The notes: a model not told the origin generated them from the sequence alone. A stretch of 64,000 nt of DNA from Candidatus Bathyarchaeia archaeon (GCA_035529595.1 DATKWK010000017.1:29384-93383); one strand, 5' to 3'. Positions 13,578 to 63,476 are shown, counted from the stretch's first letter. A program made the numbers and translations.

Positions 13578-13695
13578 AGAAGAAATAAGTTTCATTTTCC
13601 TTAAAAAAATTATTATCCAAGCTATTAATCTTGAAAATGAAGACTAATAAATATAGAGGTCTGATTAGTGAATTTGCCTGCTAAATAGGAATATT

Positions 13696-14989: not shown

Positions 14990-14995
14990 GATTTA

Positions 14996-44690: not shown

Positions 44691-45002
44691 ATGACAAATA
44701 TTGCCTTTGCTTTCGATATCGGAACCGCCTTCAACGCCCCGTTTAATTCAGTGGGCGAATTAATCTCGATCCTTTTACCGAATATTTATATTCTCGCCGG
44801 CGTCCTGCTTTTATTCCTCTTGATCGGGGGCGGATTTGGGGTTATATTGAGTGCAGGCAAAGGAGCCAAAGAAGGGGTTGGTCAAGGAAGCAAGGCGATT
44901 ACGACGGCCATAATCGGTTTCTTAATCATAATCGGCTCTTACTGGATTATCCAAATTATCAGCGTCGTAACCGGTCTGAATATCCTTGATCCCGGTCTAT
45001 AA
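44691..45002 (+). CDS. VirB2/TrbC-like pilin paralog 1
   Basis: 103 aa with two hydrophobic helices separated by a short polar loop: ILAGVLLLFLLIGGGFGVILSAGKGAKEGVGQGSKAITTAIIGFLIIIGSYWIIQII. Confidence 0.65.
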   Translation: MTNIAFAFDIGTAFNAPFNSVGELISILLPNIYILAGVLLLFLLIGGGFGVILSAGKGAKEGVGQGSKAITTAIIGFLIIIGSYWIIQIISVVTGLNILDPGL

Positions 45003-45015
45003 AGCTTATAAAAAA

Positions 45016-45378
45016 ATGGTCAAACACCTGTTAGCCAACGACTCAATCGGCACCGTCACTAATCCTTGGGAAACCCTAAACCCGGCATATACTGGCACCA
45101 GCGGCGAAGGATTGGTCACCTTATTAAACAACATCCTGAAATTAGCTGTTGTTGTCGCCGGCATCTTTTCATTCATTAATCTGATCGTCGCCGGCTACGG
45201 TTTTATGTCGGCCGCCGGTAACCCGGAAAAAATTACTGAAGCCTGGAGCAGAATTTGGCAATCACTGGTTGGTTTACTGATTGTCGCCAGTTCGTTTGTC
45301 CTGGCCGCCCTTTTTGGCTATCTGGTCTTTGGCGATCCGACAGCGATTATTTCACCTAAAATTTACGGACCGTCCTAA
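45016..45378 (+). CDS. VirB2/TrbC-like pilin paralog 2
   Basis: The ORF-track frame (44986..45378) trimmed to the internal ATG at 45016 (MVKHLL...). It contains LKLAVVVAGIFSFINLIVAGYGFMSAAGNPEKITEAWSRIWQSLVGLLIVASSFVLAALFGYLVF. Confidence 0.55.
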   Translation: MVKHLLANDSIGTVTNPWETLNPAYTGTSGEGLVTLLNNILKLAVVVAGIFSFINLIVAGYGFMSAAGNPEKITEAWSRIWQSLVGLLIVASSFVLAALFGYLVFGDPTAIISPKIYGPS

Positions 45379-45379
45379 A

Positions 45380-45745
45380 ATGAACCAAAAATTACTGGCT
45401 ACTTCATTGGGCAGTTTTCAAGGCTTCGGTAAAATCGGTACCGATTTTCTGGCTGACCCGGTTGCTTCTTTAGAGAAAATAATCTCTTTAGTAATCGGTA
45501 TAATGACTATCGGAGCCGGTATCTATTTCATATTTCTGTTAATTATCGCCGCTTACGGATGGATGAGCGCCGGCGGCGATAAACAAAAAATGCAAAAAGC
45601 CCAGGACAGCTTTACTCAGGCTATCATTGGCTTAGTAGTGGTTGTTGCCGCTTATGCTATCGCCTCGGTTGTCGGTTTCATGCTGGGCGTTAACATCTTA
45701 AATCCGTCAGAACTGTTAGGAAATATATGGTCAACCTCAACTTAG
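45380..45745 (+). CDS. VirB2/TrbC-like pilin paralog 3
   Basis: The frame (45281..45745) trimmed to the ATG at 45380 (MNQKLLATSLGSF...). It contains IMTIGAGIYFIFLLIIAAYGWMSAGGDKQKMQKAQDSFTQAIIGLVVVVAAYAIASVV. Confidence 0.6.
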   Translation: MNQKLLATSLGSFQGFGKIGTDFLADPVASLEKIISLVIGIMTIGAGIYFIFLLIIAAYGWMSAGGDKQKMQKAQDSFTQAIIGLVVVVAAYAIASVVGFMLGVNILNPSELLGNIWSTST

Positions 45746-46098
45746 AAAAAATGTTCAAGCCGGCTTACGCGCAAATTACCAACCCGGCTATCGGTGAGGC
45801 CGGAAGCGGTGAAGGAGCTCAGATTTTAAGCCGCCTTATCTCAATAATTCTGAGTGCTCTGCTAATTATGGGTGTAATCTTCTTTATGACCAATTTCATC
45901 CTTGGGGCATACCGGTGGATAAGCGGAGGCCATGACAAAAGCTATATCCAGGAAGCAAGAGACAGGGTTTCCCATGCGATTATCGGCCTGGTGATCCTTT
46001 TCTCCGTTTTTGCTATAATCAGATTGATCGGGGATATCTTTGGTCTTAATTTGATGAAACTTTCAATTCCGACAATTTCTGATGTAGGAGGAATTTGA
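45727..46098 (+). CDS. VirB2/TrbC-like pilin paralog 4
   Basis: It contains LISIILSALLIMGVIFFMTNFILGAYRWISGGHDKSYIQEARDRVSHAIIGLVILFSVFAII. The start may instead be the ATG at 45751. Confidence 0.6.
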   Translation: MVNLNLEKMFKPAYAQITNPAIGEAGSGEGAQILSRLISIILSALLIMGVIFFMTNFILGAYRWISGGHDKSYIQEARDRVSHAIIGLVILFSVFAIIRLIGDIFGLNLMKLSIPTISDVGGI

Positions 46099-46175
46099 AA
46101 TTACCGGTTAGAAGTTATTAAACTATTCCTTAGAACTATATCCTTAATAAGGAAATACTGAAAGGGGGTGAGAAG

Positions 46176-46598
46176 ATGAAAAAAATAGTCAAAACTACAG
46201 TCGCCTTAGGTTTAAGCGTTTTGCCTTTGATAACCTCAGTATCTATGGCTATGGCACAAGACCCTCTTACAGGACCGTTTAATCTTGCCCCTGGTGAAGG
46301 ATGGGAAAATCTATCCAAAATCAGTGTTGCCAGCATGGTAAAAGGACTGCTTTCTTTAGCGATGGTCCTGGCAGCCCTTGTCGCTTTTGGTTTCTTGCTC
46401 TATGGAGGTATTCTTTGGATTACTTCAGGCGGAGACAAAAGCAAGACGGAAACTGCCCGCAATACAATCACCGCTGCCTTAGTCGGATTGGTAATCGTAT
46501 TCGGCAGCTTTGCAATCATCCAATTAGTCCAGATAGCCTTTGGGGTCAGCATTCTTAAGCTTAATTTCGAATCGTTTAAGTTCTATTCAGGTAGTTAA
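46176..46598 (+). CDS. VirB2/TrbC-like pilin paralog 5 (with signal peptide)
   Basis: A strong RBS (AAAGGGGGTGAG) lies upstream. The signal peptide MKKIVKTTVALGLSVLPLITSVSMAMA is followed by LLSLAMVLAALVAFGFLLYGGILWITSGGDKSKTETARNTITAALVGLVIVFGSFAII. Confidence 0.65.
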   Translation: MKKIVKTTVALGLSVLPLITSVSMAMAQDPLTGPFNLAPGEGWENLSKISVASMVKGLLSLAMVLAALVAFGFLLYGGILWITSGGDKSKTETARNTITAALVGLVIVFGSFAIIQLVQIAFGVSILKLNFESFKFYSGS

Positions 46599-46725
46599 CG
46601 TGGAAATATTCAAGTTCCAGACAGCTAAAGCATGGGTACCAAAGCCACAAAGCTACCTTTCATCTCGCAATTAAGAGATGAAGGGTGGCTTTTGGCCATA
46701 GGGAATTAATAAATAGTCTAGAAAA

Positions 46726-47109
46726 ATGAAACAATACAAAGGACTGATTCTAAAACTAATTGTGACTGGTTGGTGTTTGCTGACTTTCTTCCCTTTTTCT
46801 GCAGCTTTAGCTCAGGATTGGTCGACTCCGCCTGACCAGCCGGCAGATTTGAAGGATATTGAGGTCGTCTTTGCCAGAATTATCGGGGTTGCCATTCCTT
46901 TAGCCGGATTCGCCGGCCTGATTATGTTGATTATCGGCGGCTTCCAATATCTTACCGCCGGCGAAGACCCAAAGGCAGTCGAACAAGCATCCAAGTCCCT
47001 TACTTCGGTCTTTACCGGGTTAGTGCTCTTAATCAGCGCCTGGATAATTCTTAAAGCAATCCAAACAATTACCGGGATAAATGTAACCATTTTTAAGATT
47101 TCGCCCTAG
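46726..47109 (+). CDS. VirB2/TrbC-like pilin paralog 6 (with signal peptide)
   Basis: The signal peptide MKQYKGLILKLIVTGWCLLTFFPFSAALA is followed by ARIIGVAIPLAGFAGLIMLIIGGFQYLTAGEDPKAVEQASKSLTSVFTGLVLLISAWIIL. Confidence 0.65.
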   Translation: MKQYKGLILKLIVTGWCLLTFFPFSAALAQDWSTPPDQPADLKDIEVVFARIIGVAIPLAGFAGLIMLIIGGFQYLTAGEDPKAVEQASKSLTSVFTGLVLLISAWIILKAIQTITGINVTIFKISP

Positions 47110-47156
47110 CTTAGATCATGTTGAAATAAAACGTCCTATAAGGTAAAATAACGTAT

Positions 47157-50100
47157 ATGGCTAATAAAAAAGTAAAATTATCGAAAAAACTAGGGGGGCT
47201 AGTCGTACTTTGGTTCTTGGCTGGTTTATTGGCAACCAAACCCTGCTTCGCCCAAAATGGCTCGGGAGCCTTATTCGGCTTTAATATTCACCATTTGGCA
47301 AAAATGGAAGAACAGGATATTAGCTCAATCTTACAGAAGCTCTCGACCGATTGTTCCACCAAAATAGTACGGATTTGGGGATACGAGACAGGAATTGACG
47401 CTTATGTCAGCCTGGAAAAAGTACTTCGGAATGCTCCGGAAGATGTTAAATTTATAGTTGCCTTAGAAGACTTTGCCCCAATTATTGAAGATCCGGTAAA
47501 CTGGTATCAGGAGGCTGCCCGGCCCGGATCAAATTACTATCGGCATGTCCAGCGGATGCTGGAACGCTACGGCAAGAATCCTCAGATTCTGGTTTGGGAA
47601 CTGGCTAACGAACCTTCCTGCGGTGGTTATTATGATGCTTGCTTGCCTAATTTTTTAAATTGGGTGGAGAAGATTTCCAATCTGATTGACGGTTATACGG
47701 ACGCCTATATTTCCCCCGGTCTGATCGGAATTCCCCAGTTCTCCGAGTACGATTATGAGCGGATTTCCAACACCGGCAGCATTAATGCTAATTCCTGCCA
47801 TTTTTATAGCAGTTATTCAGATAATGTCGTTAGTTGCCAATGGGCTTTTGATCACAAAGGCCGGGTTGAGTTTATCTATGCCGGTGAGGCCGGCTACGAA
47901 GGCGAGTTCGACTGTTCCGGCGGCGGCTGTACTACTAAACACTGTGAGAACTGCTGTGAACGGCCTATCCTTGAAAAACGAGCCAAAAAAGCGCTTGCCG
48001 ACTATGAAACATTGTCAAAAATGGGTTTTGATGCTTTCTTAATCTGGCAATTTTCACCCTTAGGCAGAGCTTGCGACAACTTTTCGGTCTTTCCGGGCGA
48101 CCCCCTCTGTCCGGGAATTCTAAATATCGCCCCGGACGAATTGACTCTGCCCCCGAATCGAAAAACCGAATGGGCCGATTCGGTTCCGGGAAGGAATATC
48201 CCCTGCCGGCCGCTGGTCGTCTCCCAACAGCAATGGGCTAGTGATACCACCAAAGGCGCCAACTATTTTAACCCATATTTTTTTAATACTGATCCGCTGG
48301 CTGCGGATTCCCTGAGCGGTTTTCCTTTTGATTATTCGCCCTGGCGGCCGTTTCCCGGCGATGCCGGCCGGGCTTTTTACGACACCAAGGGCAATATTAT
48401 CAACCAACCGCACAACGAAGACGACCAGGATGTCTGTTACGATTTGGAAAAGCTGGAAAAAGAAAAGCAGATCACCAGCTACTGCAATCCTTCCCCGCAA
48501 ATCACCGATTACATTCAATGGTTCCCTGACGAATCGGCTTTGGAAAAAACCGTAAGAGTCCTGGGCTATTACCGGCCTTTTTGGACCGACTCGCCGGCTC
48601 CGGAATATAAAACCACCCAGATTCCCTTCTTGGGCAACAGCTTAACCGCCTCACGGGAATACACCGACAACGCCCAAAGGATGTCTCTTTTTGTAAACGA
48701 TTTTCTGCGGGGAACGGTTTACTGGGACCAAACTGAAGTCGAAGAAAGAGACCCGCGGATTGCCCCGGAAAGCGGGCCGATCAGAAAACTGTTGCCTAAA
48801 AACCGGCAGATAAATAATGAGTATATTGATGCTTATATCGGCTGCCGTCTCTTTAAAGACCCTGATCAGTGTGGTTATCCGCTGCTGCATGAAGATGCCA
48901 TCCACGACTATGCTGTTCTGTGGACGACCGGAGACGCCGGTATTATCAAGACCGGCAATTTTACCGATCTGCCTGACCATCGAGAAATAAAAAAGTCTTC
49001 TGCCGTCCCCAATCCATGGCGGTTAAGCGCCTGGTTTTGCGGGTTGCCTGGTATCGCCCGACCACTTAAATATACTAATCTTTGTCCGGAAGACGATTAC
49101 AGCGGCGAAGGCATCTACTGGATCAGAAGTCAGGAAGGTTATCCCTATTTTCCGCTGACCTCCCGAGAAGACGTCCCGGCAGTGGTTGATGTCGGTTTTG
49201 ACGGCGTCTGGGATCCAAACGACCCAAGATTAAGTGAAATACCGCCCGGGAAACCTTTCCCCGTCGGCTATCAGATGAAAATGGAAGATTATTACGCTGT
49301 CATTGAAGACGGCTACTGGGAAGATTCCAATGGCGACGGAATTATGGAATATAATAAATGGGGTGGGATTTACCATATCGACAAGGGCGCCAATTCACCC
49401 GACAGCGATCCACCTCTGCCAATGTACGAATTCCACTTTGTCGATCTGGTTTTTATTCCCCATATAGCTGAAGCCCGCGAACTGGGAGAATGGGCTGGTT
49501 TAACGTTAACCCCCTATACAATGATGAAAAAAGATTTGCCTGATTTTTGGGAAAAAGACCGGAGCGTTCATCAACTTAATCTGGTCACCAGCCGTACCTG
49601 CGAGATCAATGATATTGCCCGCGGCGGACCGGGTGATGCCCTGGCAGTCGACTGGCGGCATAGTTTCCGCTATGTTGATTATCCTACCGACCCCTGGAAC
49701 ATCGGCAATGAAGGTGAAAGACAACTTAGGATACTGCGCGAAGAAAAAGCGATACCAGACCCCCTTCATGACTGGTGGTGTAAAGCCGATCCCAGCGAAT
49801 GGCCGGATCGGGAAACCACGCCGATTGAATCCAATAAAGGCTGGGTAGTGACCAAAATTCCTTATCTGGAACAAGTCGCCAAAAGACTCATCGGCCAAGC
49901 CGGGGTTTTTAAAACCTTAATGCCTTATAGTTTCAACGAGGAAGTCGAAGACTTGATTACAGAAGTTGGCAGAGGCAGCGTCTATCCTTGGGAACTGCCC
50001 GGTTACGGACCGGCCCAACACAGTTACAACAACGGCTTAGCCCCGGAAGGGGTTAAGGAACATTGGGGCTGCTGTAATTATCCAGGTGACAAGTGTGATG

Positions 50101-50387
50101 GTATGGATTATCCCCAGGCAGATTGTCCCGATTACTGCAAATGGAATTCTGAAGCTGGACTTTGTATAGTACCGGGAACTAAAGTAGATTGTATCGCCCC
50201 CTGCAACTGCGATTATTGCAGTAAAGATAACTGCGGACCGGTATCCAAGGACGGATCGGATATCCGCGGTTGGGGAACTGCCAATAATGAAGATGCCCGT
50301 TTCTATTATCCTTATATCGGAACGATTGATATTTTCCGGCAATACTTTATGAATGCCGTTCTCCCCTCTGAGCTATCGACTTTATAA
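47157..50387 (+). CDS. Large secreted protein: N-terminal GH5-family glycoside-hydrolase-like domain plus long extension with a Cys-rich C-terminus
   Basis: Signal peptide MANKK...LLATKPCFA. The GH5 acid/base motif QILVWELANEP is present, with the candidate nucleophile FIYAGEAGYEGE. The C-terminal ~100 aa are Cys-dense (GCCNYPGDKCDG...CNCDYCSKDNCGP). 1076 aa. Confidence 0.65.
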   Translation: MANKKVKLSKKLGGLVVLWFLAGLLATKPCFAQNGSGALFGFNIHHLAKMEEQDISSILQKLSTDCSTKIVRIWGYETGIDAYVSLEKVLRNAPEDVKFIVALEDFAPIIEDPVNWYQEAARPGSNYYRHVQRMLERYGKNPQILVWELANEPSCGGYYDACLPNFLNWVEKISNLIDGYTDAYISPGLIGIPQFSEYDYERISNTGSINANSCHFYSSYSDNVVSCQWAFDHKGRVEFIYAGEAGYEGEFDCSGGGCTTKHCENCCERPILEKRAKKALADYETLSKMGFDAFLIWQFSPLGRACDNFSVFPGDPLCPGILNIAPDELTLPPNRKTEWADSVPGRNIPCRPLVVSQQQWASDTTKGANYFNPYFFNTDPLAADSLSGFPFDYSPWRPFPGDAGRAFYDTKGNIINQPHNEDDQDVCYDLEKLEKEKQITSYCNPSPQITDYIQWFPDESALEKTVRVLGYYRPFWTDSPAPEYKTTQIPFLGNSLTASREYTDNAQRMSLFVNDFLRGTVYWDQTEVEERDPRIAPESGPIRKLLPKNRQINNEYIDAYIGCRLFKDPDQCGYPLLHEDAIHDYAVLWTTGDAGIIKTGNFTDLPDHREIKKSSAVPNPWRLSAWFCGLPGIARPLKYTNLCPEDDYSGEGIYWIRSQEGYPYFPLTSREDVPAVVDVGFDGVWDPNDPRLSEIPPGKPFPVGYQMKMEDYYAVIEDGYWEDSNGDGIMEYNKWGGIYHIDKGANSPDSDPPLPMYEFHFVDLVFIPHIAEARELGEWAGLTLTPYTMMKKDLPDFWEKDRSVHQLNLVTSRTCEINDIARGGPGDALAVDWRHSFRYVDYPTDPWNIGNEGERQLRILREEKAIPDPLHDWWCKADPSEWPDRETTPIESNKGWVVTKIPYLEQVAKRLIGQAGVFKTLMPYSFNEEVEDLITEVGRGSVYPWELPGYGPAQHSYNNGLAPEGVKEHWGCCNYPGDKCDGMDYPQADCPDYCKWNSEAGLCIVPGTKVDCIAPCNCDYCSKDNCGPVSKDGSDIRGWGTANNEDARFYYPYIGTIDIFRQYFMNAVLPSELSTL

Positions 50388-50439
50388 AGTAAAAATCGCC
50401 TCTTGCATTGTCAAAAAAAACCTGTTACTCTAAAAATCA

Positions 50440-52179
50440 ATGAACCTGAAAAGAATCGTTAAAAGCAAAAAAATACTAATCTTTTTACTGGCCTCTTTTT
50501 TGCTAGTCCCCCTTTTCACTAACCTGATTCTGGCTTATGACTCGACACCGGATGAAGATGATGTCCCCTATATTAAGCAGGTCTGGTTACCGGCGGTTAA
50601 ATCTTCGGAAATGAACTTGGAAAGCTTCGTCTACGAAACAATTAAAGCAATTCCCCCGTCTCTTATCAGTATGATTTTAACCAATAAGAGGTGGGCTGAC
50701 AGCTGGATAATCAAAGGAGATGTTACTCCCTATAAAATTCCCAAACCCTCCGAAGCTGGTATCTTGCAGTCTCTTTTGGGCTTTATCACCTATCTCTATG
50801 CCCAACCGCCGGCTTCAGGATTAAACTACATTGCTTACGTCCGCCAGAATCTCGGATTAGCCCCGGCCTATGCTCAAGGCAGTTACGGCTACCAAAGCTT
50901 GTCTCCGGTCATTCCGATGTGGACGGCCTTTCGTAATATAACGTACGCCTTATTTGCCATTTTGCTGGTCGTCGCCGGATTTCTGGTGATGTTCCGAATC
51001 AAGACCGATCCCCGGACGGTAATTACTGTTCAAGCCGCCATTCCTAAAGTAATTATGGCCTTGCTTTTGGTTACTTTTTCCTATGCCATTGCCGGTTTTG
51101 TGATGGACTTAACCTACGTAATTCTATTTGCCGCTCTTGGACTCTTCCGGGGAGCCGGCTTAATCGGCGGTGAAGTCTTGGGGGTAGATGTCATTAAGAA
51201 GGCGCTTACCGAGTGGAACGCGGCCTGGTTTGGTTTCATGGTCCTGATTTTTAGTACCGGTGGGCTTTTTAACGGCATTAACAATATTGTTTCCGGTTTC
51301 CTGACACCGCCGGTCATCCCCAGCATTCCATTAATCAGTGACACCTTAAGATATGTTGTCGGAATTGCTCCTTCAGCCTTGGTTTTGCTGATTATTCTGG
51401 TTGTGATTATCTTTGTCCTTTTTAAGATTTCTTTTCTACTTATTAAAAGCTACATCAGTATCATTCTGGCAGTCCTGATCGCTCCTTTCCAAATTATGCT
51501 AAGTTCTCTGCCGGGAGTAAACGGGTTTGGTTCTTGGCTAAAAAACCTGGTGGCGCATGCGGCAGTTTTCCCGATCGTCGGCATTATGTTCCTGGTGGCG
51601 GCGATTCTCATGGGACCGACAATCGGGATTCAGATTGGTCCGGTGGGCATTTCGTTTGACCCTTTTGACCGGACTAAAAGCGGTTTTAGTACCCCAGTTG
51701 CTCCGCCACCGCTTTTGGGCGACAATCTTTCCAAGCCCGGCTCGATCGAAACTTTAATCGGCCTGGGAATTATCTTTTATATCCCCAGCATCTGCAGCCG
51801 ATTACAGGAAGCGCTCCGACGCCCGCTTGGTCTTGAATCGGCGATTTCGATGGTCGGTTTTCAGAAGTCGTTTGTCGGCGGTGCTCTTTACGGATCAGCC
51901 CAGAAAAAAGCTGGGGATGCTGCTACTACGTTTCTAGGCAGTGTTCCAGGTAGGATCGCTGGTAAGGTCAAAGAAGAAAAAGGTAAGAAAGCTGTTTCTC
52001 CTACAGACCAAAGCCTTGCGCCGTCAACCCAGCAAACAGCTCATCACCCAGGTTGGCAACTACCGAGCCATAGACCGGCATCCGGCGGTGGCGCCCAGTT
52101 AGCTAAAGGTCAACAGGTTAGTCCGGCACCAACCGCGGGCCAGGCTGCAACCCCGAAGAAAACTCCAAGAGTAAGATAG
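50440..52179 (+). CDS. VirB6/TrbL-like polytopic membrane protein with a Pro/Ala/Gln-rich C-terminal tail
   Basis: 579 aa with an N-terminal signal/TM and five or more internal TM helices (ITYALFAILLVVAGFLV, IMALLLVTFSYAIAGFV, LVLLIILVVIIFVLF ...). This matches TrbL/VirB6 topology. The tail is low-complexity. Confidence 0.55.
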   Translation: MNLKRIVKSKKILIFLLASFLLVPLFTNLILAYDSTPDEDDVPYIKQVWLPAVKSSEMNLESFVYETIKAIPPSLISMILTNKRWADSWIIKGDVTPYKIPKPSEAGILQSLLGFITYLYAQPPASGLNYIAYVRQNLGLAPAYAQGSYGYQSLSPVIPMWTAFRNITYALFAILLVVAGFLVMFRIKTDPRTVITVQAAIPKVIMALLLVTFSYAIAGFVMDLTYVILFAALGLFRGAGLIGGEVLGVDVIKKALTEWNAAWFGFMVLIFSTGGLFNGINNIVSGFLTPPVIPSIPLISDTLRYVVGIAPSALVLLIILVVIIFVLFKISFLLIKSYISIILAVLIAPFQIMLSSLPGVNGFGSWLKNLVAHAAVFPIVGIMFLVAAILMGPTIGIQIGPVGISFDPFDRTKSGFSTPVAPPPLLGDNLSKPGSIETLIGLGIIFYIPSICSRLQEALRRPLGLESAISMVGFQKSFVGGALYGSAQKKAGDAATTFLGSVPGRIAGKVKEEKGKKAVSPTDQSLAPSTQQTAHHPGWQLPSHRPASGGGAQLAKGQQVSPAPTAGQAATPKKTPRVR

Positions 52180-52353
52180 GATGTCAAACAAAGACTTTAA
52201 AAAGAAGAAAAAGAAGCTTAAAGTAAGTCCGCAAGTTAAAGCGAGTTTACCCGCTTGGCAAATCTCAACCAAAAAGAAAGAAGACAACCTCAGGTTATGG
52301 AAAAAAACTCCCTACATTAGATAGAAGACTTTTTCTAATTCAAATATTAAAAC

Positions 52354-55300: not shown

Positions 55301-55722
55301 TCTATTTCATTAATTTCTCTTTGAACCTGACCTAAAAAATCAAGAATTAAATCACGATCTCTGGGGTCTCCAACTAGATGAAGATTAACTGGCACAACTC
55401 CGTGCTGAAGCATTGAAACAATATCCGGGGGCAAACCTTCAGGATGACTCGCATCAACCCTGCCTAAATTATACTGCTGCCTGATTCTCTCCAACCCATA
55501 AGAAATAAATTCTTCCGGTGGCGACCAGTCTCCAGACTCCGGAGAAGTCGGCCCTTCACTATCTGGAGGAGGAGGCGTCTCCGGCGGCTGTCCACCCTGA
55601 GGAGATTGAGGAGGATTTTCAACAAATTCACCCTCTATTTCCTCGATTCTACCGTTAGCACCCTCATCACTGGAAGCATCATTTTCTTGAACAACGCGCC
55701 ATCTATTTTGTTCGTTACTCAT
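52354..55722 (-). CDS. Large soluble hypothetical protein (1122 aa) with a Pro/Glu-rich N-terminus; candidate secreted substrate
   Basis: No TM and no signal peptide. The N-terminus is PPQSPQGGQPPETPPPPDSEGPTSPESGDWSPPEE. It is GC-rich and encoded antisense to the surrounding T4SS-like genes. Confidence 0.55.
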   Translation of the reverse strand: MSNEQNRWRVVQENDASSDEGANGRIEEIEGEFVENPPQSPQGGQPPETPPPPDSEGPTSPESGDWSPPEEFISYGLERIRQQYNLGRVDASHPEGLPPDIVSMLQHGVVPVNLHLVGDPRDRDLILDFLGQVQREINEIEGVDRVSAASLAAWLRDIRSLKERVKRFPERTIEAVAALEKNLNCLVWQVFIPEADVEVLTLTDLNEGFGPRERVPGTGMLVPPIDLVIETVELRRDGDLTLDKIEDLMDRERAWRDQMRRFISYAKVQAAGNRHEIERLDKDILEHTRQHRVMEALCGILKDQIKKENEAAKSTETKEKGPNYWLDGFYRRLDTLIRTEQPSYFEVNNTLVQDIQEWMAMIPDEVGEWKSIMGIERSFKERVRMLSRAVIAFTDRYLEMRIALGSGTAGEKVGLLLGYGESVPRIRCTTIEPEHLTMMAFWDELFIAEIAKTDEDGEVYANPEYSQPFEGAYHIWDVLASPAMRSISWSSFAQEGLGAANQAYRVALEGAVQPDEPGISDEERANRRNLVDKMLDRLPHDMPSLDDAYTSASLMNRFVEGIGQVVRSPFAVEMARKARVALFRFAVEDVHRSWHIGAYLDKIFISATYRFVSNAKVDAKVKNPACIFFLPAELTEKCDQAGQQAVANLIRLRNWHLNTEKAIEAYRLGGEIGVARLMAGGKKPGGVHESQARDLIKAYNRARVTVVAEKVGIKESESRLRAIYHRAGADAVRPLLANWNIRGRGASALLKSYQKQGEPALKELADIAQFKRLYQRAGKAAREKALQRSRTPKGLTQEKLLRLLEIGVTGELVDRRYPLTVDPKDPLIGEIVADVLTTCPIQGSKLDTALRDITAKKVSGQPLAPDEAMILEIKSRIDDIRQRWNEDGDLRALVAQARSKKERGLALTGSEEEAWEHQQSIDKIGLEGMPDIPLEHFTVGGSWKTIPFGQLSETFYNGLYMNFLWIQAMTFMEMATGQIDPRKLTDPVAVVDGAVGALRNLMDVCAWTRGLSNEANIQAYQDHVAILTANVLVQVSPWRKDAMAQPFSKALVPASEIVETMELRTTFGLTRERAPLVPALLADGLITPGHAFRLSQFAKELGFSIGHQLFREIFGPEKPPRW

Positions 55723-55775
55723 AAATTCGTTGAATTAATAAGCAGCCTTATTTTACCATATCATGTCTGCTGAAG

Positions 55776-56297: not shown

Positions 56298-56700
56298 GAT
56301 TTTATTCTAACACAAGTTTCGCAGTTGTCTGTCATTCTGAAGCATCAGCAGTAGAATCTCTTTTTTACTTTGAGATCCTATCGGGTCGAAGGTTCTACCC
56401 TCCGGGATGACAAATAGAGAGAAAACAAGCGAAATCACTCCTGCCTGCCCGCAATCGCTACGCTCAAGCGTTGGCAGACGGGCAAGGTGACAGGTTGAAA
56501 GATTCGAATCCTAAACTTTCGACTTCTAAAAAAGTTACTTGGATAACGGATTCAAACCTGAAAAAAGTAGAAGGACGCGAGGCATCCTCCTCGGAGTGTG
56601 GGATTGAGTGTAGATACGGCAACGGAATCGGAGTTGAGAGCCAACCGTGATTATGATAGAGTGATTACATCAGAGTAAGTAATAAGCCGTCTATTCATTC

Positions 56701-57723
56701 ATGGAACAACACCCGATCCCGCAACAGATTTCAAGTTATCAATTCCGCCTGATCGGCGATATGACCCTCAAACAGTTTTCTCAACTGGCCGGCGGGGTAG
56801 TTATCGCCATACTCATTTATTCTCTGCCGATCCTTTCAGTCATTAAATGGTTTCTGGTTATTTTTTTTGTATTTTTAGGCTTTGCCTTAGCCTTTCTGCC
56901 TCTTGAAGACCGGCCTTTGGATAAATGGATCACTGCTTTTATCAGATCTATCTACTCCCCGACTCAATATATTTGGCAAAAAACAAAGAAAATACCCGAC
57001 TTCCTCCAGGAAATAACTACCAAATCAAAAAAAGCGGCAGAAAATATTCCCCAGATCGAAACAACCAGGCCTAATCTCGAGGAATATTTTGAAACTTTTT
57101 CGCCTCGCCGGCCGGAATCAAAGATTGAAAAAGAAGAACAATTAGCCTTGGAGAAAATGAATTCTCTTTTCCAGGCTACCAAATTACCAACGGATTTTAT
57201 TCCGGAAACCAGACAGATTGAACCTGAAGAACAAACGATGCCGCAAATTAAAGTCAGGCCGCATAAATTAAGAATTCCCCCTTCCGAGGCGGTTGTCCTA
57301 AAAATCGGTATCATTCCTAACCCCGTAAGAAAACCTAAGAAAAGCAGTGTTTCAACGATCACTCCTACGCCTAAGATCAGGATGCCTCCTTTCAAAAGAC
57401 AATCAACCAAGACAGCGGTCGAGGCCGTAACCTCAACTGACTTACCGATTCCTGATACTCCAAGACAACCAAACGTTATCGTTGGCATGATTCTGGATCA
57501 CAACGGGAAAATAGTGGAAAGAGCGATTGCCGAAATCAGGGATAAAGACGGCATCCCGGTTAGAGCTCTCAGGAGCAACCGTCTGGGCCAGTTTCAAATC
57601 GTGAACCCCTTGCCTGACGGCGCCTATGAAATCGAGATTGAAAAGGAAGGTTTTGAATTTGATATAATTAAATTAAATCTGACCGGGGAGGTTGTCGCCC
57701 CGATTGAAATTCGAGCCAAATGA
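56701..57723 (+). CDS. T4SS-associated membrane protein (VirB3-like 2-TM N-terminus, Pro-rich linker, C-terminal beta-sandwich-like domain)
   Basis: GVVIAILIYSLPILSVIKWFLVIFFVFLGFALAFL is a TM hairpin. The C-terminal ...VIVGMILDHNGKIVERAIAEIRDKDGIPV...DGAYEIEIEKEGFEF resembles a carboxypeptidase-regulatory-like fold. The stop overlaps the next gene's start. Confidence 0.45.
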   Translation: MEQHPIPQQISSYQFRLIGDMTLKQFSQLAGGVVIAILIYSLPILSVIKWFLVIFFVFLGFALAFLPLEDRPLDKWITAFIRSIYSPTQYIWQKTKKIPDFLQEITTKSKKAAENIPQIETTRPNLEEYFETFSPRRPESKIEKEEQLALEKMNSLFQATKLPTDFIPETRQIEPEEQTMPQIKVRPHKLRIPPSEAVVLKIGIIPNPVRKPKKSSVSTITPTPKIRMPPFKRQSTKTAVEAVTSTDLPIPDTPRQPNVIVGMILDHNGKIVERAIAEIRDKDGIPVRALRSNRLGQFQIVNPLPDGAYEIEIEKEGFEFDIIKLNLTGEVVAPIEIRAK

Positions 57724-58736
57724 ACTCAACCCAAACTATCATAACACCGATCAAATCAAGTACGCAGAAATTTTTGGAGATCGAAGATATTAAGGATGGA
57801 ATCATCATGCTAATGGGTGGCAGTTGTCTTTTAGTGCTTACGACCACGGCAGTTAATTTTGGTCTTCTTTCGGAACAAGAGCAGGATACGGCTATTTATG
57901 CTTACGGTTCTTTGCTTAATTCGTTGACATTTTCGATTCAAATTCTGATTCGTTCAAAAAGAAAGGATATTTCTTCCTACCTTAAATTACTTGAAGCGCA
58001 AGAAAAAAAAATTACAGGGGCTCTATTAAAAGAGCAAATCCAAAGGTACCGAAAATTTATTCAAGAAACGGTTCAGGTAAACAATGTTTTAGAGAAAAAA
58101 TTCTATATCATCATTCCGATGTCTTTTCTGGAATTGGGTGTCAGCAAAACCGTCGGCTCCAAAATTAAAAAGACAGGCAATCTCCCCTATCCCAAGGAAT
58201 ATATTATTGAAAAGGCAAAAACTAACCTTTATCCAAAACGGGATCACCTTTTCCGCTTGTTTAATCGTTTAGGTTTAAGATCAAGACAATTGAATACACA
58301 AGAATTAGTTAGGCTTTTTTTTGAAATCTACAACCCCGGCCAACAGGGACAAATATTAAGTATGCCTGCTGATTACCAAACTCCGATAGTTAAACCGGCA
58401 ACAGATTTTATGGAAACAAATTTACCGGAAGAAATCGAAATAGAAACACCTACAGAACCGGCAACGGATCTTCCTTCTCAACCGGAAGAGGCGGGCGCTA
58501 CGGAGGAGGCAGCCAATCAGATGCAAGCGAATCCGTCCCCAGTAAACTCTCAAAATAATGAGACAATAACCGGAAATGAAGAAACCTCGCCTCAAGACGA
58601 AATCGATCAATTAGTCAAGAAAGAAACTCCAGCCAGCAACCCCCAGCAAACCAATAATGAAGGTCAACCTTCCTCTCAAAACTTTAAGAACAAATTTAAG
58701 GCGATATTTGAATCAAAGCAAAAAAATCAATTATGA
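57720..58736 (+). CDS. T4SS-associated protein with a VirB4-N-terminal-like segment (no ATPase motifs)
   Basis: N-terminal FLEIEDIKDGIIMLMGG...VNFGLLSEQEQDTAIYAYGSLLNSLTFSIQILIRS resembles the N-terminal (CagE/TrbE-type) region of Gram-positive-type VirB4 proteins. There are no Walker motifs. The stop overlaps the virB4 start (ATGA at 58733). Confidence 0.45.
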   Translation: MNSTQTIITPIKSSTQKFLEIEDIKDGIIMLMGGSCLLVLTTTAVNFGLLSEQEQDTAIYAYGSLLNSLTFSIQILIRSKRKDISSYLKLLEAQEKKITGALLKEQIQRYRKFIQETVQVNNVLEKKFYIIIPMSFLELGVSKTVGSKIKKTGNLPYPKEYIIEKAKTNLYPKRDHLFRLFNRLGLRSRQLNTQELVRLFFEIYNPGQQGQILSMPADYQTPIVKPATDFMETNLPEEIEIETPTEPATDLPSQPEEAGATEEAANQMQANPSPVNSQNNETITGNEETSPQDEIDQLVKKETPASNPQQTNNEGQPSSQNFKNKFKAIFESKQKNQL

Positions 58737-60709
58737 AACTACCGCTATCTTTACCATTACCGTTTCTTAAACGTAAAGACAAGGAACAAGCCAAGCAAAC
58801 AGAAGGGCAACCGGAGAAAAAACCAAGCGAACTGCTGGCTGAAGGAATGGTTTCGATTCAGGATATCATTGCGCCTTCGGCAATCGAGGTTGATTTTGAC
58901 CAGCTTAAAATTGGCAACACTTATTTCAGAACTCTTTTTATTTCCGGCTATCCCCGCTACGTTTCCGCTAATTGGCTGGCTCCCCTGATCAACTTTGATC
59001 ACTCGCTCGATGTGTCAATGTTCATCTATCCGATCGAAGGACGTTCTATTCTTGATGACTTAAGAAGAAAAATTGCCGAGATGGAGGCAGAAATCCAGAC
59101 TGATCTTGAGCGCGGCCGGGTCGTTGATCCAAGCACTCAAGCTAAATTGGAAGATGCCCGGTCACTTCAAGAAGAATTAGTGAAAGGAATCGAGCGTTTT
59201 TTTCAATTCAGTCTTTACGTTACCATCCCCGCCCCGTCAATCGAAGAGCTAAATCATATCTCCAAACAGATCGAGTCAACCTTAGGATCACTTTTAATTA
59301 TTCCGAAACATGCTACTTTGCAAATGGAGGAGGGCTTTAAAACCACCATCCCCATTTGCACCGATAAGTTAATGATTACCCGCAACATGGATACGACTTC
59401 TTTGGCGACAACTTTTCCTTTTACTTCGTCGGAATTAACCGCCAACGAAGGCATTCTTTTCGGCATCAATGAACATAACGATTCCTTAATTATCTTCGAC
59501 CGATTCACCTTGGAAAACGCTAACTCGGTTGTCTTTGCCAAATCCGGTGCCGGCAAATCGTATCTTGTTAAGTTAGAAGCCCTTCGGTCACTGATGTTCG
59601 GCACAGAAATTATTATTATTGATCCTGAAGCCGAATACCAAACTCTCAGCGAAGCAGTCGGTGGCCAATATATCGGTTTTGGTTTCGGCAGCTATGCGAA
59701 AATCAACCCTTTTGACCTTTCTACCGTTTATGCCGAAGAGGAAAACGAATTAAACCAGAAACTGCTTTCTCTTCATTCGCTTTTTAAAGTAATTATGGGG
59801 GTGTTAAACCCTTCGGAAGAAGCGACTTTAGACCGGGCTCTGGTCCTGGCTTATAAAATGAAAGGCATCACACCGGATCCGGCCACTCAGAAAAACGAAC
59901 CCCCCCTGATGGAAGATTTATATAAAGCCTTAACCGGTATGGAGGAACCGGAAGCCAGATCTTTGGCCGATCGGATCGAAAAATTTGTCAAAGGTTCCTT
60001 TCGCGGCATATTTGACCAACATTCAAATGTTGATATTCAAAATTCCTTTACTGTCTTTTCCTTAAGGGATCTTGAAGACACCCTGCGCCCGATAGCGATG
60101 TTTATCCTGCTTGATTATATTTGGACAAGAATCAGAAGAGAAATGAAAAGAAGGATCCTGATTGTCGACGAAGCCTGGTACATGATGAGGTATCCCGATT
60201 CAGCCAATTTTCTGCGCTCAATTGCCAAAAGAGCCCGTAAATATTATTTGGGTGTAACCACCATTACCCAGGATGTCGAAGATTTTTTCACTACCGAATA
60301 CGGCAAAGAGATTGTCTCCAACTCGTCAATGCAAATCCTGATGAAACAATCCTCGGTCGCCATTGACCGGCTAGCCGAGGTTTTTTATCTCTCCGAAGGG
60401 GAGAAAAATTTACTTCTGGCAGCTGATGTCGGCGAAGGCCTTTTCTTTGCCGGTACCAACCACGTTGCTATCCGGGTGGTCGCCTCACCTGAAGAACATA
60501 AATTAATCACTTCAAAACCTGAGGAATTAATGAGAATGGCAGAAGAAAAAAGACGCAAGATTGAAGCCGCCAAAAGAGCCGGTATCGGTCCAATCCCTGC
60601 TGAACAAGAAGTTACAGAACAAGAAATCAGTGACAGCACTGAAATCAGGCCGGAGGCAGAAAGAGTTTCACCGGCCGAAGTAGCCTCGATTACCGCCAGA
60701 CCAAAATAA
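58733..60709 (+). CDS. virB4: VirB4/TraC/TrsE-family type IV secretion ATPase
   Basis: The N-terminus IQDIIAPSAIEVDFDQLKIGNTYFRTLFISGYPRYVSANWLAPL is the CagE/TrbE/VirB4 pattern. Walker A is AKSGAGKSYLVK and Walker B is RILIVDEAWYM. 658 aa. Confidence 0.85.
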   Translation: MKLPLSLPLPFLKRKDKEQAKQTEGQPEKKPSELLAEGMVSIQDIIAPSAIEVDFDQLKIGNTYFRTLFISGYPRYVSANWLAPLINFDHSLDVSMFIYPIEGRSILDDLRRKIAEMEAEIQTDLERGRVVDPSTQAKLEDARSLQEELVKGIERFFQFSLYVTIPAPSIEELNHISKQIESTLGSLLIIPKHATLQMEEGFKTTIPICTDKLMITRNMDTTSLATTFPFTSSELTANEGILFGINEHNDSLIIFDRFTLENANSVVFAKSGAGKSYLVKLEALRSLMFGTEIIIIDPEAEYQTLSEAVGGQYIGFGFGSYAKINPFDLSTVYAEEENELNQKLLSLHSLFKVIMGVLNPSEEATLDRALVLAYKMKGITPDPATQKNEPPLMEDLYKALTGMEEPEARSLADRIEKFVKGSFRGIFDQHSNVDIQNSFTVFSLRDLEDTLRPIAMFILLDYIWTRIRREMKRRILIVDEAWYMMRYPDSANFLRSIAKRARKYYLGVTTITQDVEDFFTTEYGKEIVSNSSMQILMKQSSVAIDRLAEVFYLSEGEKNLLLAADVGEGLFFAGTNHVAIRVVASPEEHKLITSKPEELMRMAEEKRRKIEAAKRAGIGPIPAEQEVTEQEISDSTEIRPEAERVSPAEVASITARPK

Positions 60710-60759
60710 AGCTGTCTACTCTATTGTCACTTGGTTAAAAACTTGCTATAGTAAAGCTG

Positions 60760-63474
60760 ATGGCAACGCAGAGTGTACAATCTACAGGAAGATACGTCAG
60801 AGGCCCATCTGACATCCGTTTCAGAGTACCAATTCGCATTTCCCCAACCATTATCAGGCTGACTAAAGATATCAGACCGAAAACTAGCAAACTGCTGTAC
60901 GGCCTAGCCCGAAAAGACACATTACGCCGGCTTTCACAAATCCATCCCGAAGCAAGACCCGAAGTAATTAGAACTCAAATTAAAGAGGCAGCCAGAGTCA
61001 ACGGCATTACTTTCACTTATACGCAAACTCAAATAATCCAGCAAGAAATCCGATCACCACACCGTCGTTCAGTTGAGCTTCCCCACTCCGTTAAAGCAAA
61101 AATTGAGACTGAAAAAGCCAAAATTGTTTATCCTAAAATCAGCCCCGTTGTTGTCCAATTAAGAAGCCTTTCACCAACCGGCCGCATTGCCAGAGGCATT
61201 GAAAAATCGATCGCCTCGCTTTCTGAAGAGCAGAGACAGAGATTAGAGCCTTGTTATCTCCATCCGGCTTTCCAGATGATGGCCAATGGTATTTTTGAAT
61301 CCGACTTCGAAAATACCATCCAAGAACTTAGAAAAATCGTTCAAGACCCAGCCACAAGCCAATCAGACACTCGTCAGGTCAATCAAGTGATTGAACAATA
61401 TCAGGACATTCAAACCCAACTGGCCGCGTTCAGACAATATCACCGAGCGACTGCCCAAGCTTTAGAGAATGTTTGGGAACCAGCCCGCCAGGCAGGTCTA
61501 GTAGACACCAAAAAAGTTGCCGAAAAACTGAATTTACCTCATCTGGAAAACATCGAGATCGTCCCCAAAACAGTAGACGCAGCAAAACTCAAGGTAAGAA
61601 ATTTCCTTGGTCAAAAAGTAGCCGAACCCTTAGGTTTGGTTAGGGCAGGGATAGTCAAAGAAGTTAAGCTCGGAGCCGGCAAATCTACTTATCGGTTGGC
61701 AATTAAAGATGCCGTTAAAGCTGTTGGGAAAAAAGCTTTTATCCGCTTTGCCCAAACTGCGGGCGGACGAGCGTTAATTACCTTTTTCCAAAGTTCGGTC
61801 AAACCACTACTGGTAGAACTGGGTAAAAAAGCAGTCTTTCTAGCCGCCAAAATCGGAGCCAAAATTGCGGCTAAATTCGGGTTAGAGATCTCTGCCGCCG
61901 TCTTAACGGCGATAATTCCCGCCGGTGTTACTCAAATTGCCGGAATCTTAATGCTGGTATATGGAATATATGATACTGTCCTCAGCCTGATAGAAGCCAT
62001 TCCGGTCATCGGTAGGCCACTCGCTCTACTACTTGATCTTTCTAATCCTCTCGGTTGGGCAAGAAGATTATTTAAGGTTGCCACCGGATTTTTGACTTTC
62101 CGCTATCTCCGGGAAGGATTAAAAGAGGGCGGTTTCAAAGGGACTGTCAAGGTAGTTATTAATGTTCTCCCTCTAGTCTTACTCGCCGGTATCTTTCTGC
62201 CTATATTGCTGCCTTTAATTGCTATACCGCTCCTGGTTATCGGCGGACTCTTTCTTGCCAGCCGTCTCGGAGTTACGGCCATCAGAACGGCGGGCTCATT
62301 AGCCGCCTTACCCGGTATCATCATCGGAGGTATCGCTACCCTTTTACTGACACCGATTGGTTGGGTTACCCTATTCTCCGCTAGTTTTCTCATGACTTTT
62401 ATTTATATTTTCTTGGGGCTGGTTTTATTGACTGTCATCATTGTCGTCATGCTTGCCGGCGGAGCGTTCATGGTCAATCCGGCTAAATTAGAAACCGAAA
62501 GCCCAAGAGATTTCGATCTTCCTTATTCAAGGTATATTAAAGTTGATAAAACTGCCCAACCCAGTTCATATACAGAAGAGCAATTAACCCAAATTTGGGA
62601 TGTCTCTGGAAGTAAAGCAGGAGTTGATTATACTCTGACTATTACAGCCCAAGAAAAGGATATTACTGTTACTGCAATTGAAGAAACATTTAACTCTTAC
62701 CCAGAAGGAGTCCCAACTCCCTCTTCCTCGATTAACATAACCTTACCCTTAGAAATTAGAGTCGATACACCCTTCACTTATACGTATAGAAAGGAGTTTG
62801 GTAAAGAATATAAGGACTCTTCCGTTATTAATAAGATTATAGTCACTGCTAATGTTGCTGACGGCCCAACTGGAGAACAATCAGGTGCCAGTGCCAGTGT
62901 TACGTTTGGTAATGCACCGACTCTTTGTTTTGTTTTCGATGAGAACTGGAACGAAACTGATAAAGCCTTAGAAATAAGTGCAATTAACTATCTTTCTCAA
63001 TGGCCAAACTGGGTTAATTTAGTATGCACAGATATTGGAAGCATTACTTTAAAAAGGAGTTATGCGTCAGTTACTTATGGAGGTTATAAAGAATCTAACT
63101 ATGCTATTCGTATTTATGATTTAGGTCTTGGTAGTTTCGCAAATACAATTTATACTTTAGCCCATGAGTGTGGCCATATGATCGAGGACCGAAATTCACC
63201 ATACCTGATGGACCGCTTTATGACCCAAGGTATCGATACCGAACAAAAAGACGGTAACTTTTGTAGCTATTGTTATGGATTTACTTCAAGAGAAAATTTT
63301 GCTGAAATGATTGGTGTTTTCCCGGTTTATGAAATGAGAAGATTTACTGATTGTTGTCCCAATGGCGCTCTTGATCATTGCGAATATAAGGCAAGCTTTC
63401 AATGCACAATTGATTACCCGAATGATTTTCCTAACTATTACAATTTTGTTACTAGCGAAATTTATCAGCCCTAA
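60760..63474 (+). CDS. Large polytopic membrane protein with a C-terminal extracytoplasmic domain carrying an HExxH zinc-metalloprotease-like motif (possible second VirB6-like/TcpH-like component)
   Basis: 904 aa. The central ~250 aa form six or more TM helices (IAGILMLVYGIY, VLPLVLLAGIFLPILLPLIAIPLLVIGGLFLA, FIYIFLGLVLLTVIIVVMLAGGAF). The C-terminal LAHECGHMIEDRN is an HExxH motif. The C-terminal third is AT-rich, unlike the rest of the gene. Confidence 0.55.
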   Translation: MATQSVQSTGRYVRGPSDIRFRVPIRISPTIIRLTKDIRPKTSKLLYGLARKDTLRRLSQIHPEARPEVIRTQIKEAARVNGITFTYTQTQIIQQEIRSPHRRSVELPHSVKAKIETEKAKIVYPKISPVVVQLRSLSPTGRIARGIEKSIASLSEEQRQRLEPCYLHPAFQMMANGIFESDFENTIQELRKIVQDPATSQSDTRQVNQVIEQYQDIQTQLAAFRQYHRATAQALENVWEPARQAGLVDTKKVAEKLNLPHLENIEIVPKTVDAAKLKVRNFLGQKVAEPLGLVRAGIVKEVKLGAGKSTYRLAIKDAVKAVGKKAFIRFAQTAGGRALITFFQSSVKPLLVELGKKAVFLAAKIGAKIAAKFGLEISAAVLTAIIPAGVTQIAGILMLVYGIYDTVLSLIEAIPVIGRPLALLLDLSNPLGWARRLFKVATGFLTFRYLREGLKEGGFKGTVKVVINVLPLVLLAGIFLPILLPLIAIPLLVIGGLFLASRLGVTAIRTAGSLAALPGIIIGGIATLLLTPIGWVTLFSASFLMTFIYIFLGLVLLTVIIVVMLAGGAFMVNPAKLETESPRDFDLPYSRYIKVDKTAQPSSYTEEQLTQIWDVSGSKAGVDYTLTITAQEKDITVTAIEETFNSYPEGVPTPSSSINITLPLEIRVDTPFTYTYRKEFGKEYKDSSVINKIIVTANVADGPTGEQSGASASVTFGNAPTLCFVFDENWNETDKALEISAINYLSQWPNWVNLVCTDIGSITLKRSYASVTYGGYKESNYAIRIYDLGLGSFANTIYTLAHECGHMIEDRNSPYLMDRFMTQGIDTEQKDGNFCSYCYGFTSRENFAEMIGVFPVYEMRRFTDCCPNGALDHCEYKASFQCTIDYPNDFPNYYNFVTSEIYQP

Positions 63475-63476
63475 TT

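Follow-up and report, generated by a model that had tools for sequence, protein, structure and literature searches.

Southlakia epibionticum carries a Gram-positive-like type IV secretion system (T4SS) which is essential, as is its pilin array, and in which neither a relaxase nor a coupling protein can be recognised; a function in protein export, or some other function, has been suggested for it (Wang et al. 2023, Cell; PMC10633639). In a survey of Patescibacteria (Quinonero-Coronel et al. 2025, Microb Genom; PMC12102498), VirB4 proteins formed a monophyletic clade nested in the mating-pair-formation class FATA (MPF-FATA), together with TrsD, PrgI, arrays of 2-11 pilins (~25% identity) that are abundant in Microgenomatia, and a proximity to dnaA/dnaN. 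A 2025 review (PMC12857230) gives the same account. Here we describe a T4SS-type cluster on the + strand, at positions 44691-63474 of a 64-kb stretch of DNA (called the window below) from the metagenome-assembled genome (MAG) GCA_035529595.1 (DATKWK010000017.1:29384-93383). Its position was confirmed by open reading frame (ORF) listing and profile scans. The locus is very probably a chromosomal, vertically inherited T4SS of the Patescibacteria clade, derived from MPF-FATA, belonging to the class Microgenomatia and lying beside dnaN/dnaA, at the replication origin of an ultrasmall genome, with host contact as its likely function. Relaxase-less, pilin-rich T4SSs and the idea of their repurposing from conjugation were already published in 2023-2025, and the window is a typical Microgenomatia example. 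No T4SSs other than those of Patescibacteria are so far reported to be essential for their own bacterium. The epibiotic way of life of this very large, uncultivated radiation is believed to rest on them, a picture that the window leaves unchanged.

To compare loci, species-representative genomes were scanned with the window VirB4, which gave 338 relatives; all locus counts below refer to the best 80 of these 338, and co-occurrence was counted within 10 kb of virB4. With the Microgenomatia type of the Patescibacteria-clade T4SS (PMC12102498), the locus shares an MPF-FATA VirB4, an adjacent TrsD, PrgI/VirB3 and PF18895 arrays, as well as the absence of a nearby relaxase or type IV coupling protein (T4CP) and the place next to dnaA/dnaN. 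Nothing essential sets it apart from that type. Two points differ from the survey: VirB6 homologues are scarce in Microgenomatia there, whereas here a conserved polytopic protein has VirB6 as its best fold match; and VirB3 is rarely virB4-linked in the class (22.6%), whereas a PrgI-like gene is adjacent in 77/80 of our loci. The S. epibionticum ML1 cluster (SEML1_0006-0019; PMC10633639) shares the Gram-positive-like subunits, a divergent VirB2-like pilin array, peptidase or lysozyme genes right after virB4 and the lack of a recognisable relaxase or coupling protein. It belongs to another class, Saccharimonadia, where essentiality and host dependence were shown, and it is likened to the window here by its published description, not by sequence. 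The original prediction on this DNA, made from the nucleotide sequence alone, had proposed a Gram-positive-type T4SS core plus pilins and linked it to the essential T4SSs of epibiotic Saccharibacteria. The first proposal is supported by matches above cut-off to PF18895, PF12666 and NF045971, and the second agrees with both publications (PMC10633639, PMC12102498).

The MPF-FATA prototype, plasmid pCF10 of Enterococcus faecalis, has the order PrgH(VirB6)-PrgI(VirB3)-PrgJ(VirB4)-PrgK(membrane-anchored wall hydrolase)-PrgL. This parallels the window order VirB6-like ... PrgI-TrsD-VirB4-PrgK-like-small transmembrane (TM) protein, and PrgJ matches the window VirB4 at 7e-42. The two differ in that pCF10 encodes PcfC (T4CP) and PcfG (relaxase) and no pilins, whereas the window locus has pilins and no PcfC/PcfG homologue; in addition, the window VirB4 is split, its locus is chromosomal while pCF10 is a plasmid, and the gene in the position of PrgL has a DUF4309/BLIP-like and not a VirB8-like fold. 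Tandem divergent VirB2 paralogues are likewise found in the T4SSs of Bartonella and Anaplasma, where they are thought to aid antigenic variation or contact with a range of host surfaces (PMC12102498); these are diderm MPF-T effector systems with VirD4, and the likeness is one of analogy only.

The T4SS core, its setting and its relatives

The genes of the locus are listed below.
44691-47109, + strand: array of six VirB2-like pilin paralogues (PF18895, shared hairpin, one BLAST cluster), with ORFs 44691-45002, 45016-45378, 45380-45745, 45727-46098, 46176-46598 and 46726-47109, all +
47157-50387, + strand: secreted 1076-aa protein with 33 Cys and an N-terminal GH5 (clan GH-A) mannanase-like domain (Pfam, 3ziz)
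50440-52179, + strand: polytopic membrane protein, 579 aa, six predicted TM segments and a disordered Pro/Gly/Ala-rich tail
52354-55722, - strand: orphan protein, 1122 aa, divergently oriented, with no TM segment, signal peptide or P-loop
55776-56297, - strand: membrane-anchored S-adenosylmethionine-dependent methyltransferase, 173 aa (DOT1 and PrmA Pfam matches)
56701-57723, + strand: PrgI/VirB3-family protein, 340 aa (PF12666, 31.4 bits, gathering threshold (GA) 27)
57720-58736, + strand: TrsD-type protein, 338 aa, homologue of the VirB4 N-terminal domain (NF045975, PF26593)
58733-60709, + strand: VirB4 ATPase, 658 aa, CD1110/MPF-FATA type (NF045971, 4ag5)
60760-63474, + strand: PrgK-like membrane protein, 904 aa, ~5 TM segments at residues 369-565
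63477-64000, + strand: 5' part of a gene that runs past the window end and encodes a membrane-anchored extracellular protein of 201 aa (full gene in the flanking record L001)
38089-38907 and 38909-39211, + strand: two further VirB2-like genes, upstream of the cluster

The VirB4 ATPase was correctly predicted. The 58733-60709 product matches the NCBIfam model NF045971 (VirB4-like CD1110 family) with 399 bits (cut-off 325), P-loop_TraG at 1e-27 and the VirB4 crystal structure PDB 4ag5 at E=7e-49, and both its Walker A (AKSGAGKS, 269) and Walker B (ILIVDE, 475) motifs are intact. Upstream of it, the TrsD-type protein aligns to positions 108-281 of NF045975 (E=3e-7), a VirB4 model 894 positions long, and matches PF26593 (TraC-like) weakly. 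Judged by these alignments, VirB4 is split here into a TrsD-like N-domain and the ATPase proper. Two small VirB3-like proteins had been proposed at this place: one of them, the 56701-57723 product, passes PF12666 with a PrgI domain at residues 5-89 followed by a weak CarboxypepD_reg-like C-terminal domain, whereas the other is the TrsD-type homologue of the VirB4 N-domain, and their actual sizes (340 and 338 aa) do not fit the word small. Start/stop overlaps (ATGA) couple prgI, trsD and virB4 translationally.

This core is widely conserved, far more than chance would give. The order prgI-trsD-virB4 is syntenic in 77-80 of the 80 loci (prgI in 77/80, trsD in 78/80), and dnaN/dnaA lie near virB4 in 57-58 of them. 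The window VirB4 is 64-76% identical to its 80 relatives; plasmid VirB4s reach at best 30-37%, the best of them being Firmicutes and Actinobacteria CD1110-family proteins. These identities (64-76% to 80 Microgenomatia VirB4s against <=37% to plasmid VirB4s) are indirect support for a placement in the Patescibacteria clade. Lineages were taken from the informative record titles, which are all of Microgenomatia/Patescibacteria MAGs, many other titles being evident mislabels; those named are Shapiro-, Beckwith-, Curtiss-, Gottesman-, Chisholm- and Woesebacteria, of the Microgenomates group. The contrast between identity within the class and identity to plasmid VirB4s points to long vertical descent under purifying selection. 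Sequence comparison therefore indicates a vertically inherited, chromosomal core machine that descends from MPF-FATA, as opposed to an element acquired recently.

The gene context is chromosomal as well. We surveyed ~83 kb (contig positions 19.3-102.7 kb) of the 385-kb JGI contig 3300031539, Ga0307380_10000013. Past position 64000 come, in order, the rest of the 201-aa gene, dnaN, dnaA, rnpA, yidD, yidC, jag, and wzy and flippase genes; dnaN and dnaA start ~0.6 kb and ~2 kb beyond the 201-aa ORF downstream of the cluster. Upstream neighbours of the locus are isoprenoid genes, including one for a polyprenyl synthase. Seven tRNAs, a tmRNA, dnaG, rpoD and efp also lie in the window, which is therefore chromosomal. 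The neighbours of the T4SS locus are housekeeping genes, and no integrase or repeats flank it.

In five of the six ORFs of the pilin array, PF18895 (T4SS_pilin) scored above the Pfam gathering threshold, and the sixth (44691-45002) aligns with the other five on the same two-TM hairpin. Each array pilin has such a hairpin with a G-rich 'SxGGD-x-K' loop, and pairwise identities within the array are 15-39%, as in published arrays. A total of eight VirB2-like genes had been given for the cluster. Six of these lie within 44691-63474; the count is probably explained by the two paralogues at 38089-38907 and 38909-39211, outside those limits. The region of this pair (38089-39211) scores 21.4 bits with PF18895, below GA. 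BLAST groups all eight pilin-like ORFs of the window, together with the pilins of related loci, in a single cluster. The 38089-38907 product (272 aa) has a signal peptide, then a Cys-rich stretch of ~190 aa, then a C-terminal VirB2-like hairpin, and the plain pilin paralogue 38909-39211 follows this fusion protein directly. Isoprenoid genes lie between this pair and the main array, and in one related locus (L066) homologues of both genes adjoin dnaA.

A VirB6-like protein had also been predicted, and the 579-aa protein is its probable counterpart, as a very divergent VirB6 analogue. Its family occurs near virB4 in 41/80 loci. No match was found in Pfam, NCBIfam or a PDB profile search. AlphaFold2 (AF2), given 41 homologues, modelled a helical core with confidence (pLDDT ~67-96 per 10-residue block, mostly >85), and of the first seven Foldseek matches of this model all but the fifth, DotA, are chains of R388 TrwI/VirB6 (PDB 7o3v, 8rt9, 8rtd). 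These best structural matches have E-values of 0.09-1.3 and TM-scores <=0.41, a sequence-level signal is absent, and the window protein is about twice as long as TrwI/VirB6. The VirB6 label thus stands on fold similarity, with E-values that are not significant.

The last gene of the cluster encodes the 904-aa PrgK-like protein. By an iterated hidden Markov model (HMM), members of its family were found directly after virB4 in 52/80 loci. Among ten relatives tested, the C-terminus carried Peptidase_M23 in five, CHAP in two and a C39-like domain in one, whereas the window protein and four relatives have a strictly conserved LAHExGH, followed ~45 residues on by SE(D/N)FAE. This C-terminal extracytoplasmic domain is a putative zincin. 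By position and architecture the protein resembles VirB1-type wall hydrolases (PrgK, TraG, TcpG), of which it would be an analogue. Two candidates answer to the wall or glycan hydrolase that had been announced for the locus: the GH5-like protein 47157-50387 and this member (60760-63474) of a family with M23, CHAP or C39-like C-termini.

Relaxase and coupling protein

Pfam scans of the larger ORFs of the window (at least 100-110 aa) detected no T4CP, FtsK or relaxase family, and no T4CP or relaxase is listed in the precomputed Pfam annotation of the 10 kb to either side. pCF10 PcfC and PcfG used as seeds found nothing in the window, the flank or the 80 related loci, and an HMM of Microgenomatia T4CP-like proteins found nothing in the window. 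A repeat scan of the window gave no oriT-like or att-like structure, only short inverted repeats (<=28 nt). The absence of a relaxase and of oriT-like features, as first proposed, was therefore upheld by the window scans, the flank tables, the PcfG seed search and the repeat scan. Just past position 64000, where a VirD4 and a MOB relaxase would have spoken against that proposal, the sequence continues with the 201-aa gene, dnaN and dnaA instead.

The coupling protein calls for a narrower statement. In 27/80 loci (L039-L083 range, all of a Gottesmanbacteria-like group), a T4CP-like ATPase is encoded in the locus, between the VirB6-like gene and prgI. It is a 729-aa soluble P-loop protein on the minus strand (e.g. 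L045:5512-7698, -) matching DUF87, TrwB_AAD_bind (30.6 bits, GA 20.5) and TraG-D_C (23.8 bits, GA 22) in Pfam; its homologues also carry PF26449 in precomputed annotations. Against curated T4CP models it matches mainly around the P-loop, far below cut-offs, and it has no TM anchor. In the window, the interval from the VirB6-like gene to prgI contains only the unrelated 1122-aa orphan and the methyltransferase, and no T4CP-like gene.

The T4CP-like ATPase is very conserved: a search with it gave 3,221 hits, and the best 120 of these are all at least 72% identical to the query; the contig studied here was not found among these 120. In a separate metagenome scan this contig was again not among the matches listed, but one match lies on another contig of the same sample (L107:2989-5151), far from any T4SS gene and with radical-SAM, nadD and groES-groEL genes as neighbours. 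Tetranucleotide correlation of that contig to the window (r=0.944) was the top value among T4CP-like loci of at least 4 kb; the next best was 0.939, so that the value does not discriminate. A gene of the CTP_transf_like (nadD) type adjoins the T4CP-like gene in both L107 and L054, and the same family occurs near the T4SS in 24/80 loci. In published data, T4CP homologues were reported in 2,918/3,035 Patescibacteria genomes and relaxases in only 103; in Table S3, the T4CP homologue is far from virB4 in every Microgenomatia genome consulted, and the T4CP-like protein is non-essential in S. epibionticum (PMC12102498).

Because 27/80 relatives have an in-locus T4CP-like gene and T4CPs elsewhere in the genome have been published, the absence of VirD4 is a local statement, established for the locus, i.e. 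~83 kb of the 385-kb contig. The original claim is true of the window and 10 kb on each side, and is unsupported for the genome as a whole, where a T4CP-like ATPase is very probably encoded elsewhere. The inference of a non-conjugative machine therefore does not follow from the missing coupling protein; it follows from the missing relaxase and the chromosomal context.

Role of the locus and rival explanations

The locus is not a self-transmissible conjugation module. What was first called a non-conjugative machine is indeed chromosomal, off any mobile element and without a relaxase nearby, and only the argument from a missing VirD4 is unsupported as it was put. What was observed directly is the identity of the genes, their synteny and conservation, and the lack of a relaxase and a T4CP nearby, whereas we infer pilus formation, wall remodelling, substrate and host interaction from homologous systems. 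By that analogy, the split VirB4 (TrsD-like N-domain plus ATPase) would dock on the membrane via the PrgI/VirB3-like protein and the divergent VirB6-like protein, and would supply the energy to pull VirB2-like pilins out of the membrane and build them into a surface filament or conduit. Local opening of the cell wall would fall to the PrgK-like protein with its C-terminal hydrolase domain, here of the HExGH zincin type. The eight divergent pilins and the fast-evolving GH5-like and 1122-aa slot proteins probably tune the machine to host surfaces or are cargo. The most likely role is host-cell contact and contact-dependent transfer, such as Saccharibacteria need for epibiotic growth; between attachment, protein delivery and DNA uptake, sequence alone cannot decide.

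Several points weigh against this interpretation. The best TrwI/VirB6 match of the 579-aa model is non-significant (E=0.089, prob 0.97, TMt 0.41), and hhalign of this protein against pCF10 PrgH was negative. The HExGH domain of the 904-aa protein has no match in Pfam or PDB sequences, and no VirB8-like (NTF2-fold) bitopic protein of the PrgL, TraM or TcpC type was identified at the locus. A T4CP-like ATPase, or less likely a relaxase, may lie elsewhere in the contig or MAG. Finally, the very conserved T4CP-like ATPase encoded within 27/80 loci would fit a machine that translocates substrates, even DNA, and does more than build a pilus.

One alternative is functional DNA transfer, by conjugation or mobilisation, with a coupling protein and a relaxase encoded elsewhere and acting in trans. 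The in-locus T4CP-like ATPases of 27/80 relatives, the published T4CP homologues far from virB4 in Microgenomatia (PMC12102498), the L107 T4CP-like gene from the same metagenome and the integrative elements with serine recombinases in the window all favour such transfer. We nonetheless consider it very unlikely: the 83 kb contain no relaxase, relaxases occur in only 103/3,035 Patescibacteria genomes (PMC12102498), and the locus is fixed beside oriC across the class. The T4CP-like protein, moreover, lacks a TM anchor and matches T4CP models mainly at the P-loop, far below cut-offs; in L107 its gene is paired with nadD beside groESL, and in S. epibionticum it is non-essential (PMC12102498). A machine that takes up DNA, comparable to Helicobacter ComB or archaeal Ced/Ted, would keep a cell that cannot make nucleotides or DNA supplied with them. 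T4SSs that import DNA without a relaxase are known, and the window has a comFC-like gene (31639-32334). Saccharibacteria genomes lack de novo nucleotide synthesis (review PMC12857230), and VirB4 matches the CedB and CedD models, though weakly: CedB scores 42.8 bits for a cut-off of 700 and CedD 18.7 for a cut-off of 600, and no other Ced or ComB family, hence no Ced-like or ComB-like partner gene, was detected at the locus. In S. epibionticum, cells without comEC lose competence, for which type IV pili are needed, and stay viable, whereas the T4SS is essential (2025 review, PMC12857230). DNA uptake is therefore improbable, if a little less so than transfer in trans.

The local absence of relaxase and T4CP, together with several slots filled by orphan ORFs lacking detectable homologues, is also what a decaying, non-functional remnant of an integrated conjugative element might look like. 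Such decay is the least credible of the alternatives and can be given hardly any weight, since core ORFs are intact, Walker motifs are kept and start and stop codons are coupled; 80 species-level genomes keep the synteny and a VirB4 of 64-76% identity; and housekeeping neighbours take the place of a flanking integrase or repeats. A vertically inherited T4SS for host contact thus remains the preferred reading. In practice, the window provides an annotated reference for the Microgenomatia T4SS. Its small additions are a candidate VirB6, backed at the level of the fold, in a class from which few VirB6 homologues had been reported, a post-virB4 gene that encodes a PrgK-like protein with interchangeable wall-hydrolase domains, and hypervariable proteins at fixed positions, flagged as candidate effectors or host-specificity factors. 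The probable VirB6, the cassette in which hydrolase and partner would swap, and the orphans of the fixed slots are leads, not results.

Variable genes and neighbouring sequences

The slot between the pilins and the VirB6-like gene is lineage-specific; a large ORF fills it in the window and also in the relatives whose loci were mapped. In the window it encodes the GH5-like protein, which has one N-terminal hydrophobic segment, Pfam GH42 and GH5 matches, and a match to the GH5 mannanase 3ziz in the PDB (E=8e-8) spanning the catalytic motif WELANEP. This protein has no homologue in the 80 related loci. GC content peaks in the part of the window where its gene lies (0.496, against ~0.35-0.45 over most of the window). 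High GC and the lack of homologues in the 80 loci would be in keeping with a gene that was acquired recently or turns over fast.

The interval between the VirB6-like gene and prgI is occupied in 52/80 loci by large minus-strand ORFs (358-2134 aa), mostly without a TM segment. No Pfam family was found in the slot proteins scanned, including those of closer relatives, and there is no homology between the slot proteins of different loci except for two families of ~1,200 aa. The 1122-aa orphan of the window has no Pfam, NCBIfam or PDB match. By their position and divergence, these minus-strand ORFs are candidates for fast-evolving cargo or host-interaction proteins. As the T4CP-like ATPase of 27 relatives occupies the same interval, the 1122-aa protein was also considered as a divergent coupling protein. 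The idea was rejected because the protein lacks a Walker A motif, gives a probability of 2% in hhalign against the T4CP-like family and has no Pfam, NCBIfam or PDB match; with the T4CP-like family HMM it was not even among the weak matches, the best window ORF reaching E=0.24. The methyltransferase next to it has a homologue in 2/80 loci, in one case (L011) at the same position, and is probably an accessory gene outside the core.

A third variable region follows virB4. Downstream of HExGH-type hydrolases, the next gene always belongs to the 201-aa DUF4309/BLIP-like family; after M23-type hydrolases it belongs mostly to a different, 340-aa family, and in CHAP-grouped loci it encodes a Big_5-domain TM protein. 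Examples of this covariation are seen at 60760-64000 of the window and in L015, L056, L062 and L083. As hydrolase domain type and next-gene family co-vary, the comparison suggests that the two swap together as a two-gene cassette. The 201-aa family has 521 representative clusters. A profile search of PDB sequences with the window member found nothing, and its AF2 model (pLDDT 93.2) gave SAV1118 (4h0a, E=1.9e-4) and the DUF4309 protein YjgB (4ygt, TMt 0.52) as best Foldseek matches. The fold is a DUF4309/BLIP-like tandem alpha-beta that resembles YjgB and the non-SCP domains of SAV1118-type proteins. Because it occupies the position of PrgL, the 201-aa protein was examined as the missing VirB8/PrgL analogue; this was rejected, the model being confident and having no VirB8/NTF2 match in Foldseek.

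These observations can be arranged, tentatively, into a scheme that we regard as possible but doubtful, in which the Microgenomatia T4SS would consist of a conserved chassis (pilins, VirB6-like, PrgI, TrsD, VirB4) and three hypervariable slots encoding host-range determinants and translocated effectors. Slot 1 would hold a large secreted protein after the pilins, here the GH5-like Cys-rich 1076-aa protein. Slot 2 would hold a large orphan in divergent orientation, without TM segment or signal peptide, here the 1122-aa protein, which may be a T4SS cargo or effector. Slot 3 would be the two-gene cassette after virB4, combining a hydrolase domain (M23, CHAP, C39-like or HExGH) with a matched small partner; the DUF4309/BLIP-like partner found here could regulate or inhibit the HExGH domain.

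Other features were noted in the neighbourhood. Just upstream of the T4SS locus, an extracytoplasmic function (ECF)-type sigma factor (42941-43522, -) and a small overlapping ORF (42583-42966) form a minus-strand pair (42583-43522) that is not conserved in related loci. A promoter/terminator scan was uninformative, with 42 promoter-like sites where 32 were expected. The comFC-like gene is on the minus strand beside the tmRNA/smpB region, and its product has a double zinc ribbon N-terminus; it matters here only because it points to competence in this genome. The MAG (locus tags VMW41_00830, VMW41_00865) is labelled 'Candidatus Bathyarchaeia archaeon' at NCBI; its content is plainly bacterial and patescibacterial, as judged from the tmRNA, sigma-70, DnaA/DnaN and a VirB4 of Microgenomatia type. 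Several related MAGs are likewise mislabelled, e.g. as 'uncultured Gammaproteobacteria' or 'Clostridia'. Finally, positions 1-16577 of the window, together with the 10 kb upstream (L085), which contain more mobile-element genes, form an integrated island ending at a tRNA-Asn gene (16502-16577). The island carries two large serine recombinases, a type I restriction-modification system (hsdR, hsdM, hsdS) and GmrSD, as well as an SMC/PHP-like ATPase, a dCMP deaminase and a NucS-like gene.

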